Shown here: positions 28,328-32,486 of the stretch, piece after piece
How positions within the stretch are numbered: the first letter of the stretch is position 1
How the letters are laid out: the number at the start of each line of letters is the position of its first letter
From: Thermoanaerobaculia bacterium
GTDB taxonomy: Bacteria; Acidobacteriota; Thermoanaerobaculia; Multivoradales; JAHEKO01
DNA: 46,819 bases
Direction: 5' to 3'
Assembly: GCA_033720955.1 (NCBI GenBank)
Contig: JAWWBN010000002.1
Coordinates: forward strand, 1 to 46,819
Made by a program: the position numbers and the translations under genes
Notes under the pieces: generated by a model
Database searches by the model: none
Told to the model about the DNA's origin: nothing
What the model saw: only the letters and a program-made list of their open reading frames with translations

Positions 28328-30187
28328 ATGGCCGAAGAAGTAACTCTTTTGGAGGTTCCTCGAGCCGAAGGGGGCTGGTCGCGTCACCGCGGGCCGGTGA
28401 CGGGTGTGGAAATGATCCCGGGCACCCGGCTGGCCGTCACCTCCGCCTACGACAGCGCCGTCGGGATCTTCGACCTGGAGAGCGGTGAGGTCGAGCTGCT
28501 CGGCTATCACGATCATCTGGTCAACCGGATCGTCGTCAGCCCGGACGGCGCGCTCGCGGCGTCCTGCTCGTCCGACTACTCCATCTGTCTCTGGGACCTG
28601 CGGACCCGGCGCAAGGTGATGACCCTGCTGGGCCACAGCGACGACGTCGAGGACTTCGTCTTCGCGGACGCGGAGACCGGCGTTTCGGCGTCGCGCGACT
28701 GGCGGCTCCTGGTCTGGGACCTTCGCACCGGCGCCGTGCGGCGGGTGCTGGAGGGGCATCAGAAGGACGTGCTGGTGCTCGCCGTCGCTGAGGGCCGGGT
28801 CTACTCCTCGGGAGACGACATGACGCTCCGGGTGTGGGACCTCGCGACCGGAGAGCAGTTGAGCCTGATCGGACCCTTCGAGGACGAGACCGACACCTGC
28901 GCGATCGACCCGGGGAGAAAGCGCGCGATCCTGGGGTGTGACGACGGCTGCATCCGCGTGTTCGACACCGCCAGCGGCCAGGCGACCCACGTCATCGAGG
29001 CCCACGCCTCGGGCATCAAGAAGGTCGCCGTCTCGGCGGCCACCGGCGACATCCTGTCGGCGGCCTACGACCAGAAGATCGTGATCTGGGACGCCGCCAC
29101 GCTGGAGGCGCGTCTCGAGCTGGACAGCACGTCGGCGACCTGGGAGCGCTCTCTGACCTGGTCTCCGGACGGCGCCAAGATCGTCGGCGGGACCTTCGAC
29201 GGAACGGTCCTGGTCTGGGACAGCGCTACCGGCCGTCTGGAGAGCGAGATCGGTGAGCCGGGCGAGGTTCCCGGCAACCCCTGCTTCAACGAGGTCGCGG
29301 CGGGGCCGAGCGGCACCTTCGTGGTGGTCAGCGACGACGGTTTCGTGCGCCGCGGCCGGCTCACCCCCGAAGAGGGCCGCTGGGAGTGCCGGTGCGAGCC
29401 GCTGTCGGGCCGCATTCTGGCCAACGCGGTGACCTACGACGAGGAGTACCGGATGGTCGTGACCGGCGCCCACGACCACACCGTGCACATCTTCGACTCG
29501 ACGCCCGCGGGTCTCGAGCGGGAGCGCGAGGTGGCGCTCGGCGAGGGGCCCATCAACTCGGTGCGGATCGCCCGGCACCGCGGCTACGAGCGCGACGTGT
29601 TCGTGGCCTGCTACTCGAGCGCCATCGTCCGGCTGTCGCCGGAGGGCGAGATCGAGGGCAAGGTCTCGGTCCACGAGGGGGCGGTCAAATCGCTGCGGCT
29701 GCATCCCGCGAAGAGGGTCGGCGTGAGCTGCGGAGCCGACGGCCTCCTCCTGGGCTGGAGCTTCGAAGGCGAGCTTCTGCACCGCTATCTGGGCCACACG
29801 GCCATCATCAACGACGTGGATCTCGAGCCGGGTGGCGAGCGGCTCGCCAGCGTGTCGCGCGACTTCTCGCTGAAGATCTTCGAGCTCGAGACCGGGCGGA
29901 TGCAGCAGACGATCCCCATCGGCCGCAAGTCGCTCAAGTCGGTCTGCTTCTGGAGCGACGAGGTGGTCTTGGTCGGGGACTACTGGGGAGGCCTGATCCG
30001 GGTCGACCTGAAGTCCGAGAGCTACGAGAGGGCCGTGGTCGCCGGCAACGGCATCAGCTCCGTGGCCCGATGCGGCGGGCACGCCGTGCTGACCTCCTAC
30101 GACGGGGCGATCTACCTGGTCCGGCCCGACCTGGCCGTGGTGCGCTCGCTGCGGGCGATGCATCAGCGGCTCGCTCGGGCCGCGTAG
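28328..30187 (+). CDS. WD40 repeat protein (about 619 aa, probably two propellers)
   Basis: The ATG follows gaggaggtggag. Repeated blade ends are present: ICLWDLRT, LLVWDLRT, LRVWDLAT, IRVFDTAS, IVIWDAAT, VLVWDSAT, VHIFDSTP, LKIFELET. GH dipeptides (LLGHSDDV, LEGHQKDV, YLGHTAII) are also present. Confidence 0.85.
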   Translation: MAEEVTLLEVPRAEGGWSRHRGPVTGVEMIPGTRLAVTSAYDSAVGIFDLESGEVELLGYHDHLVNRIVVSPDGALAASCSSDYSICLWDLRTRRKVMTLLGHSDDVEDFVFADAETGVSASRDWRLLVWDLRTGAVRRVLEGHQKDVLVLAVAEGRVYSSGDDMTLRVWDLATGEQLSLIGPFEDETDTCAIDPGRKRAILGCDDGCIRVFDTASGQATHVIEAHASGIKKVAVSAATGDILSAAYDQKIVIWDAATLEARLELDSTSATWERSLTWSPDGAKIVGGTFDGTVLVWDSATGRLESEIGEPGEVPGNPCFNEVAAGPSGTFVVVSDDGFVRRGRLTPEEGRWECRCEPLSGRILANAVTYDEEYRMVVTGAHDHTVHIFDSTPAGLEREREVALGEGPINSVRIARHRGYERDVFVACYSSAIVRLSPEGEIEGKVSVHEGAVKSLRLHPAKRVGVSCGADGLLLGWSFEGELLHRYLGHTAIINDVDLEPGGERLASVSRDFSLKIFELETGRMQQTIPIGRKSLKSVCFWSDEVVLVGDYWGGLIRVDLKSESYERAVVAGNGISSVARCGGHAVLTSYDGAIYLVRPDLAVVRSLRAMHQRLARAA

Positions 30188-30208
30188 GGGCGGAGCGGGA
30201 GTGGAGAG

Positions 30209-31384
30209 TTGAGCACGTCGAAGAACGGGACCCTCGATCTCGATCCCGTCTTCGATGCCATCCGCCGGGGCGGCATGGTGCTGCTCGTGCCGGACGCGAG
30301 CGAGGGCGGTGCCATCTGCCATCTGGTGCTGGCGGCGGAGAGGGCGTCGCCGCGCTCGGTGGGGGCGATGCTCAGCCTGGGCAACGGCTCGACGGTGGTG
30401 GCGCTGACCCGGGACCGCTGCGAGCGCTTCGGGCTCGCCACGGTGGACGGCACGGCCGGCCTGGTCGGCAGCCGGCCGGGTGCGCCGATGGAGGCGAAGG
30501 AGCTCGGTCCGCTGTCGGCGCAGAGGCTGGCGCGCGTCGCGGCGCAGCTCGCCAACGGCGACGGCGCGGGCAGCCAGGCGAGGCTCGATGGCGTCGAGGT
30601 GCGTTGCGCCGACTGGGGCGGCGTCGTGAGAACGCCGTTGCCGCTGGAGGCGGCGGTCGACCTCGTGCGTCTCGCTGGTCAGCCCCCCGTGGCACTGGTG
30701 AGCCGGGTGCGGTCGGAGGAGGCGGCCGGCTACGACTGCGCCGACCTGCCGCGTCTCGCCATCTCGCAGCTCGCGGCCTACCGCCGCGCGCGAGCACCCG
30801 TGCTGCTGCGTCGCCATGGCCCCAGGGTGCGGCTGCCCACCCGCCACGGGGCCTTCTCGCTGCAGGCCTACGAGGATCCCCTCACCGGCTCGCTTCACCT
30901 CGCCCTCACCATGGGGACGCCACGTGGCCCGGCTCTGGTCCGCGTCCACTCGGAGTGCCTGACCGGCGACCTCCTGGGGTCGCTGCGCTGCGACTGCGGC
31001 TCGCAGTTCGAGGAGTCGCTGGCCGCCATCGGCCGCGAGGGCTCGGGGGTGCTGATCTACCTGCGGCAGGAGGGACGCGGGATCGGTCTCGTGAACAAGC
31101 TTCGCGCCTACGACATCCAGGACCAGGGCTACGACACGGTGGAGGCGAACGAGCGGCTCGGATTTCGACCCGATCTGCGCGACTACAGCTTCGCCGTCTT
31201 CATGCTGAAGGACATGGGGATCGAGGCGGTCCGCCTGCTCACCAACAACCCCCGCAAGAGACACGGCCTGGAGCGCCACGGGATCCAGGTGAAGGCACGA
31301 GTGCCGCTGGTGGTCGAGCCGACCCCCGAGAGCCTGGGCTACCTGAGGGCCAAGAGGGACAAGCTGGGCCACCTGCTCCCGTGA
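30209..31384 (+). CDS. ribA: GTP cyclohydrolase II with a degenerate N-terminal DHBP-synthase-like domain (RibBA architecture)
   Basis: TTG start after ggagcgggagtggagag, 21 nt after the WD40 stop. The C-terminal domain has VRVHSECLTGDLLGSLRCDCGSQF (Zn cysteines), EGRGIGLVNKLRAYDIQDQGYDTVEAN and RDY. The N domain aligns to RibB, but PDASEGGAICH replaces the acidic DDEDRENEGD loop. Confidence 0.88.
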   Translation: MSTSKNGTLDLDPVFDAIRRGGMVLLVPDASEGGAICHLVLAAERASPRSVGAMLSLGNGSTVVALTRDRCERFGLATVDGTAGLVGSRPGAPMEAKELGPLSAQRLARVAAQLANGDGAGSQARLDGVEVRCADWGGVVRTPLPLEAAVDLVRLAGQPPVALVSRVRSEEAAGYDCADLPRLAISQLAAYRRARAPVLLRRHGPRVRLPTRHGAFSLQAYEDPLTGSLHLALTMGTPRGPALVRVHSECLTGDLLGSLRCDCGSQFEESLAAIGREGSGVLIYLRQEGRGIGLVNKLRAYDIQDQGYDTVEANERLGFRPDLRDYSFAVFMLKDMGIEAVRLLTNNPRKRHGLERHGIQVKARVPLVVEPTPESLGYLRAKRDKLGHLLP

Positions 31385-31424
31385 GACGGCGTGGCCGCCG
31401 GCTGTCGACGCGAAGGAGAGCTGC

Positions 31425-32486
31425 ATGAAGGTGAAGAGGGACGAGCATCTCGTCGAGACCGACAACGCCCTGGTCTTCCTCGAGCGTCTGGACGCCGACG
31501 CCGCGCTCGCCGAGCGCTGTGAGCGCACCGACCTGGAGGGCCGACTGAGAATCGCCTCGGAGATCGGCCTGCCGGTCTCGGAGGCGGAGTTCCGCCGGGC
31601 GATCCGCTCCTGGGACTACCACGGAAGATGGACCCGGTGGCAGAGCGCGGGACGTCTTGCGGAGGCGTTCGACGATCTGCCGGAGCTGGACGGCGAGTAC
31701 CCCGTCTCCGACGAAGCGGTGGCGTCGTACCGGCGGGACGGCCACCTCCTCCTGCGGCAGGTGGTCGGGCCGCAGGAGGTCGAGGCCTATCGACCGGTGG
31801 TGCGCGACCTGGTGGCGCGCCACAACACCCAGGTGGACGCCCGCGACCAGCGGCCCGAGGAGCGCGGCTACCTGCAGGTCGTCAACCTGCACATGCGCAG
31901 CGCCGCCGCGCGGCGGCTCGTCCGCTCGCCGCGTCTCGGCAGGATCGCGGCGAGACTGCTGGGGGTCGAAGCGGTGCGGATCTACATCGACCAGGCCTTC
32001 TACAAGGAGCCCGGAGGCAAGATGTCCCACTGGCATCAGGACCAGCTCTACTACCCCCTCGAGACGGAGCGGCTGGTGACGATGTGGCTCCCGCTGGTGG
32101 ACGTCAGTCACGAGATGGGGGTCGTGGCCTACGCCTCCGGCTCCCACCGCGAGGGCTTCCTCGGCTTCAAGCCCGACCGCGCCGACGCCGAGGAGGACCA
32201 TCCTCGGTTCGTTCGCCGGCTCGGCTACCCGATCTGGAAGCCCGGCCAGGTGATGGCCGGTGACGCCACCTATCACCACGGCTGGGTGGTCCACGGGGCG
32301 TACGCCAACCGCAGCGACCGGATGCGCGAGGTGGTGGTGGTGATCTACTACCCGGACGGAACCCGGATCGTCGAGCCGAGCAACGAGTTCCAGAAGCGAG
32401 CCATCCGCTACATGTGGGGGGAGGCGGCGAAGCCCGGCGAGCTGGCCGCGGGCCCCACCAATCCAGTCGTCTACTCCGCCGGATGA
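31425..32486 (+). CDS. PhyH-family Fe(II)/2OG oxygenase with an N-terminal Nif11-like domain
   Basis: RBS aaggaga. Residues 12-70 or so (ALVFLERLDADAALAERCERTDLEGRLRIASEIGLPVSEAEF) fit the Nif11 pattern (F-L-E-k-v-x-x-D-x-x-L ... A-k-E-x-G-f-x-v-t-x-e-E-l). The PhyH core has HWHQDQLYYP and YHHGWVVHGA. Confidence 0.85.
   Translation: MKVKRDEHLVETDNALVFLERLDADAALAERCERTDLEGRLRIASEIGLPVSEAEFRRAIRSWDYHGRWTRWQSAGRLAEAFDDLPELDGEYPVSDEAVASYRRDGHLLLRQVVGPQEVEAYRPVVRDLVARHNTQVDARDQRPEERGYLQVVNLHMRSAAARRLVRSPRLGRIAARLLGVEAVRIYIDQAFYKEPGGKMSHWHQDQLYYPLETERLVTMWLPLVDVSHEMGVVAYASGSHREGFLGFKPDRADAEEDHPRFVRRLGYPIWKPGQVMAGDATYHHGWVVHGAYANRSDRMREVVVVIYYPDGTRIVEPSNEFQKRAIRYMWGEAAKPGELAAGPTNPVVYSAG

Follow-up and report, generated by a model that had tools for sequence, protein, structure and literature searches.

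The closest described systems to the locus studied here are the toxoflavin cluster toxABCDE of Burkholderia glumae and the pseudoiodinine cluster psdABCDEFG of Pseudomonas mosselii. In pseudoiodinine synthesis the WD40 protein PsdE and the FGE-like protein PsdC are each required, and psdE and psdC mutants are rescued by 1,6-didesmethyltoxoflavin (PMC9911603). Concerning toxoflavin synthesis, we found no definition of the role of the WD40 protein in the literature; glycine is reported to supply ring atoms of toxoflavin. The canonical toxB-C-D-E order is present in Saccharopolyspora erythraea and Pectobacterium. The window (the whole stretch of DNA analysed, 46,819 nucleotides) resembles the tox and psd clusters in that a GTP cyclohydrolase II (GCHII) gene lies beside a gene for a WD40 protein of the same family (~560-620 aa), genes for SAM methyltransferases and for a VOC-fold protein lie close by, and GTP is the presumed starting substrate.

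The window differs from both clusters in lacking an FGE-like ToxD/PsdC as well as RibD (ToxE/PsdG), whose places are taken by a NodH-type sulfotransferase and a Zn-dehydrogenase. Also, its WD40 protein falls in a separate clade, its GCHII is derived from RibBA and is not of the short ToxB type, and two PhyH oxygenases, a B12-binding radical SAM enzyme, an SDR and a CmcI-like methyltransferase are added. The initial annotation had reported that ToxD and RibD-like genes are absent, and our searches agree: the genes called by GC3 and several further long ORFs were scanned with Pfam, and five FGE proteins and one RibD were used in tblastn, without revealing an FGE-sulfatase (ToxD) or RibD homologue in the window; none is present in the loci syntenic with it. 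Our main reading, to which we give a probability of about 0.6, is that the region at ~20.5-36 kb is a biosynthetic cluster for a GTP-derived small molecule, composed of a four-gene core and tailoring genes.

Genes of the core

The frame of the WD40 gene (28328-30187, plus strand) was set by GC3 frame analysis and Pfam. The gene starts with ATG at 28328, behind a GAGGAGG sequence, and ends with TAG (30185-30187); its product has 619 aa. A start at 28142, giving a longer ORF, was rejected as unsupported and overlapping the divergent dehydrogenase (ADH) gene. The GCHII gene (30209-31384, plus strand, 391 aa) follows after 21 nt and starts with TTG at 30209, a start supported by conserved N-terminal residues upstream of the next ATG. 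Third on this strand is a PhyH gene (31425-32486) with a GGAG ribosome-binding site. This order of three genes is as first annotated.

More than 1000 full-length homologues of the WD40 protein were found. Its AlphaFold model (pLDDT 92, ~55 strands) is that of a tandem seven-bladed double propeller, and the top fold matches are scaffold double propellers; the model and the fold comparison thus describe a scaffold-like protein in which no obvious catalytic site was seen.

The GTP_cyclohydro2 domain of GCHII is complete, as had been claimed (Pfam 223 bits; TIGR00505 230.8 bits, cut-off 205.85), and keeps the Zn cysteines C54/C65/C67, Y105 and R128. It shares 52% identity with E. coli RibA and 35-48% with tox-linked GCHIIs, so the proposed likeness to ToxB was not sustained. 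The DHBP-synthase domain at the N terminus scores 43.7 bits and is degenerate, having lost the RENEGD and GHTEA motifs. Judged by sequence, the enzyme is a RibBA-derived two-domain protein with a catalytically dead DHBP-synthase part. Likeness to the riboflavin pathway (RibBA/RibD) extends to the intact GCHII catalytic core and to the RibD_C-family reductases of related loci. Unlike that pathway, the window has an inactive DHBP synthase, it lacks a deaminase, lumazine synthase, riboflavin synthase and FMN riboswitch, and WD40 and the sulfotransferase form the conserved gene context; Pfam found no other rib genes near the core. In the archaeal and fungal riboflavin order, reduction precedes deamination.

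These data bear on the reading that a housekeeping riboflavin GCHII merely adjoins an unrelated scaffold or signalling WD40 protein, with no pathway meaning. The closeness of the GCHII domain to E. coli RibA would fit, as would the fact that WD40 proteins are common and mostly non-enzymatic. However, the dead DHBP-synthase domain leaves no working RibBA, neither other rib genes nor an FMN riboswitch lie close by, the WD40/GCHII pair is kept across about ten phyla, and fusions join GCHII, sulfotransferase, RibD_C and WD40. This reading is strongly disfavoured.

The other two core genes lie on the minus strand. The NodH/Stf0-type PAPS sulfotransferase (26389-27138, 249 aa from an internal ATG) has a weak Pfam match to Sulfotransfer_3, and its best PDB match is 9vki, ‘LPS sulfotransferase NodH’ (E 2.6e-21). 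It shares 45-62% identity with proteins encoded beside homologous WD40 genes; among these sulfotransferases, conservation is 95% or higher for the Pro and Gly of the PRSGS loop and for an Arg/Ser pair further downstream, features shared with the NodH/Stf0 carbohydrate sulfotransferases. In contrast to NodH/Stf0 systems, the window has no Nod-factor or trehalose-sulfate genes, and the gene context suggests that the acceptor is a small molecule derived from a nucleotide; two genomes encode the sulfotransferase as a fusion with GCHII. The Zn-dependent medium-chain dehydrogenase (27132-28181, 349 aa, Pfam ADH_zinc_N) is polyol/threonine-dehydrogenase-like, with threonine, butanediol, xylitol and sorbitol dehydrogenases as PDB relatives.

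The divergent intergenic region (28182-28327) separates the ADH and sulfotransferase genes from the WD40, GCHII and PhyH genes. It contains a -10-like box, TAGTGTATGAT, at 28227-28237, conserved as TAGTGTATAAT in two related loci (L002 and L009). A search for Rfam elements, FMN riboswitches among them, found nothing in this region.

Relationship of the WD40 protein to ToxC-type proteins

The WD40 protein belongs to what we call clade A, the sulfotransferase-linked branch of ToxC-family WD40 proteins, of which we found no description in the literature. It was compared with ‘tox-type’ WD40 proteins, a class assigned by gene context and JGI names, with the Burkholderia glumae and Pseudomonas ToxC sequences outside the comparison. 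The clade-A HMM matches WD40 proteins of toxBCDE-like clusters end-to-end (420, 366 and 182 bits), in one envelope covering HMM positions 20-620, whereas generic WD40 proteins give only partial repeated matches of at most 116 bits. In the reciprocal profile search, clade A ranks right below the tox-type proteins and ahead of generic WD40s. The label ‘ToxC’ is given by JGI to some members of both groups. In the tree, clade A is split from the tox-type proteins with 100/100 bootstrap; the window protein shares about 30% identity (26-32%) with the latter, and identity within clade A across phyla is 50-79%. Based on these sequence comparisons, the WD40 protein is a genuine full-length ToxC relative in a clade of its own. 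The specific relationship to ToxC was therefore upheld, and the idea of a tox cluster merely lacking ToxD and ToxE is contradicted by the distinct clade.

The nearest WD40 relatives outside clade A are found on tox-like plasmids of Firmicutes (Halobacillus litoralis pLDW-31 and Bacillus arachidis; L007 and L008), with 29-33% identity to the window protein in tblastn (27-36% when measured on the trimmed tree alignment) and scores of 366-420 bits against the clade-A HMM. The plasmid clusters also have GCHII beside WD40 and a VOC protein close by; unlike the window, they contain SUMF1/FGE, a PLP enzyme, an FMN reductase and RibD (Bacillus), and no sulfotransferase. We know of no characterised product of these clusters.

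A true toxoflavin/fervenulin-type 7-azapteridine cluster, with a 1,6-didesmethyltoxoflavin-like ring, methyltransferases acting as ToxA, and the tasks of ToxD and ToxE performed by non-homologous enzymes or genes elsewhere, has several points in its favour: the ToxC-family WD40 protein next to GCHII, the JGI name ToxC on some clade-A members, the methyltransferases and VOC protein close by as in tox and psd clusters, and the FGE/ToxD-like genes that adjoin clade-A WD40 genes in four Paenibacillus species. The deaminase could come from a housekeeping RibD, and a ΔpsdG mutant is impaired only in part (PMC9911603). We nevertheless consider such a cluster unlikely. FGE and RibD are absent from the window and its syntenic loci, and the reductases of relatives have no deaminase; the class I methyltransferase, the only one tested, does not look like a ToxA, and tox clusters have nothing that corresponds to the extra oxygenases, radical SAM enzyme and SDR. 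Also, sulfotransferase and FGE never occur together in 54 complete loci, which suggests a different chemistry.

Distribution, conserved partners and fusions

Clade A was found in at least 80 species (80 loci) of about ten phyla; the survey of a collection of 185,579 species gave at least 113 confirmed matches, a lower bound set by the search pattern. The sulfotransferase is present in 65 of the 80 loci, GCHII in at least 51 and RibD_C in 51. Where the flanks are complete (n=54), 48 loci contain the sulfotransferase, three contain FGE and none contains both. The RibD_C reductases of relatives are deaminase-less, and across loci RibD_C and ADH are anticorrelated (Fisher p = 0.0015; 10 ADH loci); from this distribution, the Zn-dehydrogenase of the window probably replaces the RibD_C reductase of most relatives. 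The constant partners of clade A are thus a NodH-type sulfotransferase, GCHII, and a RibD_C reductase or, alternatively, a Zn-dependent alcohol dehydrogenase.

Two genomes (L011 and L015) encode a GCHII-sulfotransferase fusion, and RibD_C-WD40 and GCHII-RibD_C fusions are also found; the fusions tie GCHII, sulfotransferase, RibD_C and WD40 to one pathway. Because of these partners and fusions, the core comprises four genes (26389-31384), sulfotransferase included. The latter, which the initial annotation took for a decorating enzyme, is instead a conserved core partner of WD40. The WD40/GCHII pair recurs in most related loci, and its adjacency in the window is more than chance. In one locus (L042) the same four-gene set forms a single same-strand run, and many carriers have a compact 4-5 gene operon alone. 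Cultured carriers with compact operons include Pseudoalteromonas holothuriae (L064) and Lysobacter brunescens (L080). In Alphaproteobacteria the core is surrounded by glycosyltransferase genes, a setting that could indicate a cell-surface product.

Instead of a diffusible secondary metabolite, the core might produce a sulfated pyrimidine unit, ribityl- or ribosyl-substituted, that goes into an envelope glycoconjugate or some other molecule with a structural or physiological role. In 16-20 loci, chiefly alphaproteobacterial, GT4 glycosyltransferase and GINT1_N-like genes occur alongside it, and a glycosyltransferase and a polysaccharide deacetylase adjoin it in L004; the sulfotransferase family takes its name from LPS and Nod-factor sulfation, and the cross-phylum conservation of WD40 is high. 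Against this stand the window and its close relatives, which contain no glycosyltransferase and have typical small-molecule tailoring enzymes, as well as the carriers with only the compact operon and the sparse distribution across species. An envelope role therefore appears improbable.

Proposed pathway and tailoring genes

The best reading is that a ToxC-assisted route yields a product derived from GTP, because of the WD40 homology, the reciprocal ranking, the ToxC labels and the FGE neighbours in Paenibacillus. Of the ToxB/ToxC-like route to a GTP-derived N-heterocycle first proposed, the ToxC-like part stands and the ToxB-like part falls with the RibBA-derived GCHII. To our knowledge, no product, intermediate or enzyme activity of a clade-A cluster is known, so all steps past GCHII are inferred.

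The four core genes are arranged around the divergent promoter region. GCHII, with its conserved residues, would convert GTP to 2,5-diamino-6-(5-phosphoribosylamino)pyrimidin-4(3H)-one. The Zn-dehydrogenase, in RibD_C's stead, would probably reduce or oxidise the ribosyl or ribityl side chain, as its distribution suggests. The WD40 protein would most likely be an assembly platform or obligatory helper for the conversion of a pyrimidine intermediate, much as ToxC and PsdE in toxoflavin and pseudoiodinine synthesis, and the sulfotransferase, in the place of the FGE-like ToxD, may sulfate an early intermediate. Since a deaminase is absent, the product probably retains the 2-amino group (guanine/pterin pattern), as opposed to the uracil pattern of toxoflavin. 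A pyrimidine or azapteridine derived from GTP, sulfated and extensively tailored, is the probable product.

Tailoring would be performed by the two PhyH oxygenases, the B12-binding radical SAM enzyme, three methyltransferases, the SDR and the VOC protein. Several of them resemble enzymes acting on sugars, and only a small Thermoanaerobaculia-like lineage has this set; the whole cluster is syntenic in L002 and L003 (42-81% protein identity). Pfam found the methyltransferases and VOC protein that had been noted nearby. The single-domain VOC/glyoxalase-fold protein (20493-20915, minus strand, 140 aa) shares 74% identity with its counterpart in L002 and 25-28% with VOCs beside Firmicutes tox-type clusters. 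Its PDB relatives are FosA-like and no toxoflavin lyase is among its 18 PDB matches, so the suggested link to the toxoflavin-degrading enzyme was not borne out; a role in resistance or tailoring is possible. Next to it, a conserved protein of ~410-420 aa (20912-22174, minus strand), present in relatives, has a faint 2OG-Fe(II) oxygenase match, no PDB or NCBIfam match and no assigned function. The second PhyH-family Fe/2OG oxygenase (22335-23117, plus strand; Pfam, NCBIfam) has an HxD motif (HQD) and is therefore taken for a hydroxylase and not a halogenase. The B12-binding radical SAM enzyme (23133-25139, minus strand, 668 aa; Pfam) has only NCBIfam matches under cut-off and 9ccb, AprD4, CysS and TokK as PDB relatives. 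The CmcI/rhamnosyl-O-methyltransferase-like protein (25262-26356, minus strand, ~364 aa) has a SnoaL-like N-terminal part and matches RMNT_CmcI (Pfam, 197 bits) and, under cut-off, an NCBIfam rhamnosyl O-methyltransferase (167 bits).

On the other side of the core, the Fe(II)/2-oxoglutarate oxygenase at 31425-32486 (Pfam PhyH) also has the HxD motif (HQD), and is closest in the PDB to MysH and to the sugar-acting enzymes SnoK and SnoN. The NAD-dependent epimerase/dehydratase (SDR; Pfam, 32471-33406, minus strand) is lineage-specific, syntenic in L002, L003 and L009 only. It is followed by an O-methyltransferase with Methyltransf_2 and dimerisation domains (33493-34518, plus strand), assigned to tailoring by Pfam and synteny, and a class I SAM methyltransferase (34515-35357, minus strand; Pfam, NCBIfam, PDB). 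The latter is nearer to UbiG and CmoB than to ToxA, to which it is only weakly similar: its PDB scores are 45.7 bits for UbiG, 30.6 for 5jdy/5jdz/5je3, which we take to be B. glumae ToxA, and 26.6 for 8rdl (‘ToxA protein’). A homologue (49% identity) adjoins GCHII in L004. The last gene encodes a conserved 209-aa protein with no assigned function (35378-36007, plus strand), with a sub-threshold MptE-like Pfam match and only two, unconvincing PDB matches (E ~0.045); it shares 79% identity with its counterparts in L002 and L003 and likely marks the cluster edge.

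Gene content of the window and the GTP cyclohydrolase II

Genes in the window (G+C about 70–72%) were called from third-position GC, and the calls were checked with Pfam and NCBIfam. The WD40 gene (28328-30187, + strand) starts at an ATG at 28328 preceded by GAGGAGG, ends with a TAG at 30185-30187 and encodes 619 aa. The ORF of the GTP cyclohydrolase II (GCHII; 30209-31384, + strand, 391 aa) has a TTG start at 30209, 21 nt past the WD40 gene, and is followed on the same strand by a PhyH oxygenase gene with its own ribosome-binding site (31425-32486, +). The gene calls, Pfam and NCBIfam therefore agree with the initial annotation, which had described a 619-aa WD40 protein, a 21-nt gap, a complete GCHII domain and then a PhyH on one strand; the methyltransferases and VOC protein that it placed nearby are also present, as three SAM methyltransferases and one VOC protein, together with a B12-radical-SAM enzyme. 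The absence of ToxD and RibD from the window, which it had also stated, holds: Pfam detects no FGE/ToxD-like (sulfatase-modifying-factor-like) or RibD-like gene, whether in the called genes or in several additional long ORFs; five FGE proteins and one RibD, used as tblastn queries, have no homologue there; and RibD_C (the reductase part of RibD without the deaminase) is likewise absent in the Pfam scans.

Divergently from these genes run a sulfotransferase gene (26389-27138, −), whose product matches a solved NodH structure (PDB 9vki, E 2.6e-21), and a Zn-dehydrogenase gene (27132-28181, −), whose product resembles threonine and polyol dehydrogenases. The sulfotransferase belongs by sequence to the NodH/Stf0 family and carries its loop and Arg/Ser motif: across 61 sequences (the window protein and 60 orthologues), two loop residues (Pro and Gly of PRSGS) and the Arg and Ser of RRRN...S, which we take to be PAPS-binding positions, are at least 95% conserved. 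The divergent intergenic region holds a -10-like box, TAGTGTATGAT (28227-28237), which is kept as TAGTGTATAAT in the related loci L002 and L009; the consensus in the alignment of relatives is TAGTGTAT(G/A)AT. It is likely a promoter element for the WD40–GCHII–PhyH genes; it came from the alignment, a promoter and terminator scan having been uninformative. An ASST-type (PAPS-independent) arylsulfotransferase gene (16146-17807, −) also lies just upstream of the cluster; since it is absent from the syntenic L002, it is probably outside the cluster.

Concerning the GCHII, its C-terminal half is a complete domain (Pfam 223 bits; TIGR00505 230.8 bits against a cut-off of 205.85) in which the equivalents of the zinc cysteines C54, C65 and C67 and of the catalytic Y105 and R128 are kept, as in RibA. 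The N-terminal half is a DHBP-synthase-like domain in which the RENEGD and GHTEA motifs are replaced, so that the protein does not qualify as a functional RibBA, and it scores below the curated thresholds (TIGR00506 29.5 bits against 177; PRK09311 300 bits against 569). No other rib gene lies near the GCHII gene, and an Rfam scan finds there neither an FMN riboswitch nor any other RNA family. Judged by its sequence, the window GCHII is RibBA-derived and probably a dedicated copy. Its GCHII domain shares 52% identity with E. coli RibA, the sole housekeeping reference, and 35–48% with the GCHIIs of tox-type loci; the proposal that it is ToxB-like stands for the enzyme class, and a specific relationship to ToxB finds no support in this comparison.

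Relationship of the WD40 protein to the ToxC family

The tox-type WD40 proteins of this comparison are defined by gene context and by the name 'ToxC' in JGI. Many such proteins came up in tblastn against plasmids and in two protein searches, with none from Burkholderia or Pseudomonas among the matches listed. The reference loci have the order GCHII–WD40–FGE–RibD in Saccharopolyspora erythraea and GCHII–WD40–FGE in Pectobacterium; plasmids of Halobacillus and Bacillus carry GCHII, WD40, SUMF1 and VOC genes with or without RibD and a methyltransferase, and a further tox-like cluster is found on a Streptomyces plasmid. NCBIfam has no family that matches the window WD40 protein, and therefore no ToxC model to test it against. 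Because WD40 repeats score high against any WD40 protein, specificity was tested directly with an HMM of clade A, the WD40 branch to which the window protein belongs. One envelope spanning HMM positions 20-620 aligns this model with the tox-like WD40 proteins from Halobacillus (420 bits), Bacillus (366 bits) and Streptomyces (182 bits), whereas cyanobacterial repeat proteins match only in part, several times over and within the N-terminal propeller, at no more than 116 bits per match. Reciprocally, a profile built from three tox-type WD40 proteins places clade A (340–400 bits, 96–99% coverage) directly below the tox-type proteins and above generic WD40 proteins.

Neighbour joining of 30 sequences over 551 columns, with 100 bootstraps, resolves three clades with 100% support each: clade A, the window type (~620 aa); clade B, the Firmicutes tox-type (586 aa); and clade C, the canonical tox-type (~560 aa). 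Mean identities are 0.60 within A, 0.32 between A and B, and 0.26 both between A and C and between B and C. The window protein shares with the ToxC family a full-length, colinear homology beyond generic WD40 repeats and the adjacency to GCHII (21-nt gap in the window), and lacks in the window the FGE/SUMF1-like ToxD partner. By its sequence it is a ToxC-family member as much as the Firmicutes proteins are, in a clade of its own. The relationship to ToxC that had been suggested is accordingly upheld as to full-length homology, in the HMM and in the reciprocal profile, and qualified by the separate clade with its 100% bootstrap.

The predicted structure of the window protein (pLDDT 92, pTM 0.88) is all-beta with ~55 strands, as would fit a pair of seven-bladed propellers. 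A fold search with this model returns only generic tandem-propeller scaffolds, namely SSU-processome WD proteins (including Utp21), Aip1, COPI and Apaf-1, and gives no catalytic clue; the residues invariant across the WD40 clades are largely the structural GH, D and W positions of WD repeats. Since the best folds are scaffold-like and the invariant positions mainly structural, the protein is more likely a platform than a catalyst.

Distribution and conserved partners of clade A

Public data contain over 1000 homologues of the window WD40 protein, and the best 120 of these are covered over nearly their whole length. A genome scan identified at least 80 species loci with a clade-A WD40 protein (49–78% identity). 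These are found in Thermoanaerobaculia (best match 78%) and Holophagales, Planctomycetota, Gemmatimonadota, γ- and α-proteobacteria, Paenibacillus, Actinomycetota, Myxococcota and Entotheonella; the cultured proteobacteria among them include Lysobacter, Tahibacter, Pseudoalteromonas, Sphingomonas, Caulobacter, Rhizobium and Telmatospirillum.

Partners were counted by clustering all neighbouring ORFs at 80 loci, 54 of which have full 10-kb flanks (complete loci). A NodH/Stf0-type sulfotransferase is present in 65 of the 80 loci and in 48 of the 54 complete ones, GCHII in at least 51 of 80 (within 10 kb in 42 of 54), and a pyrimidine reductase consisting of RibD_C only, with no deaminase domain, in 51 of 80. 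Among the complete loci, RibD_C (40 loci) and the Zn-dehydrogenase (10 loci) tend to exclude each other (Fisher p = 0.0015). A protein of ~500 aa adjoins the clade-A WD40 in 55 of the 80 loci, usually directly upstream (e.g. L049:8381-9889); it has no match in Pfam or NCBIfam and no homologue in the window. Where the pathway takes its commoner form, this protein belongs to the core.

Several partners are also fused: GCHII with the sulfotransferase in two Acidobacteriota MAGs (L011:11858-13825 and L015:11894-13843), GCHII with RibD_C in Lysobacter and Pseudoalteromonas, and RibD_C with the WD40 protein (P0087; L005:790-3297, on a metagenome contig). The same four core genes are consecutive on one strand in the homologous locus L042; in the window the sulfotransferase and Zn-dehydrogenase genes are divergent from WD40–GCHII–PhyH. 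The conserved partners, the fusions and the gene order of L042 together define a conserved core of four genes. Genetically, the intact GCHII is thus tied to a ToxC-family propeller and a PAPS-type sulfotransferase, and a coincidental adjacency is highly improbable. The sulfotransferase had been regarded as a later decoration; as a WD40 partner in nearly nine-tenths of the complete loci, and fused to GCHII in two genomes, it is a core enzyme and not a decorating one.

The FGE gene is found in 3 of the 54 complete loci, all from Paenibacillus, and together with the sulfotransferase in none of the 54; across the whole of clade A it is limited to four Paenibacillus loci. In these (L045:8860-12821; also L062, L066 and L073) the clade-A WD40 gene lies between an FGE/ToxD-like gene and a PLP enzyme gene, with an FMN reductase and an MFS transporter near and with neither a sulfotransferase nor a local GCHII; they are hybrids of the two cluster types. 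Three FGE-type loci each encode a second, very divergent propeller-like protein of 613–650 aa (L092:9727-11568, L007:2555-4405 and L045:2544-4496).

Proposed pathway and tailoring genes

The cluster of the window resembles the front end of both the toxoflavin and the pseudoiodinine pathways. In the latter, the counterpart of ToxD is PsdC, a 'sulphatase-modifying factor' (FGE-like), and the WD40 protein is PsdE; production of pseudoiodinine requires both, and mutants in either are rescued by 1,6-didesmethyltoxoflavin (PMC9911603). The window nevertheless lacks the two defining features of a toxoflavin cluster, ToxD and ToxE (the RibD-like deaminase/reductase, of which its relatives carry RibD_C only), and adds a different obligatory partner. 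The view that this is not a plain toxoflavin cluster is therefore borne out. A true azapteridine product made by substituted enzymes would fit the shared front end, and is doubtful given those two missing features.

In the pathway that we consider most likely, GTP would be opened to a diaminopyrimidinone ribotide. Reduction of its side chain would fall to RibD_C in most species and, in the window, probably to the Zn-dehydrogenase. The 2-amino group would be retained, because no deaminase is present; the WD40 protein would organise the next conversion, and the sulfotransferase would act early, in the slot held by ToxD in tox clusters. Lineage-specific oxygenases, methyltransferases, a rSAM enzyme and an SDR would then remodel the product. 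On a further-reaching reading, to which we tentatively give a probability of about one in five, the ToxC-like WD40 protein, NodH-type sulfotransferase, GCHII and deaminase-less reductase or Zn-dehydrogenase would form a hitherto unrecognised multi-phylum pathway to a sulfated 2-amino-pyrimidine or 7-azapterin-type product; PAPS sulfation would replace the ToxD step of toxoflavin-type ring or N–N bond formation, for example through a sulfate leaving group, and the WD40 protein would be the assembly platform common to both routes. No description of a WD40, GCHII and sulfotransferase gene set was found in the searchable literature, which is incomplete.

The proposal touches the question of how toxoflavin obtains its azapteridine ring and N–N bond from a riboflavin-type intermediate, in which ToxC and ToxD are the players concerned. 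A large, well conserved ToxC branch in which ToxD is exchanged for a sulfotransferase is a natural experiment that may separate the contribution of the WD40 protein from that of its partner. Clade A also points to an orphan class of GTP-derived, probably sulfated metabolites, with carriers including Acidobacteriota, Planctomycetota, Gemmatimonadota, Lysobacter, Sphingomonas, Caulobacter, Pseudoalteromonas and Entotheonella; the compact operons of four to five genes in several cultured carriers make it testable in culture. The L064 locus of Pseudoalteromonas holothuriae CIP 111854, for one, encodes a GCHII–RibD_C fusion, the ~500-aa protein, the WD40 protein and the sulfotransferase; other cultured carriers are Lysobacter brunescens, Tahibacter soli, Caulobacter sp. 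BP25 and Rhizobium oryziradicis.

The tailoring genes around the core are shared only with the loci L002, L003 and L009. Several of their products resemble sugar-modifying enzymes: a SnoK/SnoN-like PhyH, an AprD4-like rSAM enzyme, a rhamnosyl-O-methyltransferase-like CmcI and an SDR epimerase/dehydratase. An alternative in which the core makes a building block of an envelope glycoconjugate is, in our view, improbable. The product is probably a sulfated pyrimidine or azapteridine that derives from GTP. The other PhyH oxygenase (22335-23117, +) scores 76 bits against a 'chlorinating enzyme' model, and was rejected as a halogenase because its HxD motif is kept. The VOC protein is FosA-like, and its assignment as a toxoflavin lyase is not supported. 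The one methyltransferase compared, of class I (34515-35357), matches UbiG with 45.7 bits, 5jdy/5jdz/5je3 (PDB entries which we take to be B. glumae ToxA) with 30.6 and 8rdl ('ToxA protein') with 26.6, and so by sequence apparently resembles UbiG more than ToxA. Antisense within the methyltransferase CDS, ARAGORN predicts a tRNA-Ser(cga) (34684-34772, +); Rfam has no tRNA there, and the call is probably a false positive.

Elsewhere in the window, a DUF2330 protein is split into two overlapping ORFs (39802-40425 and 40374-41159, +) that cover profile positions 2-150 and 152-278, which points to a frameshift or a pseudogene, or else to an error of assembly. Two long ORFs are also found outside the cluster: one of 1032 aa (36-3134, +), which has no Pfam match and whose first-position GC, at 0.61, is unusually low, and one of 988 aa (4272-7238, +), in which FAD-oxidase, 4Fe-4S and CCG domains are fused.
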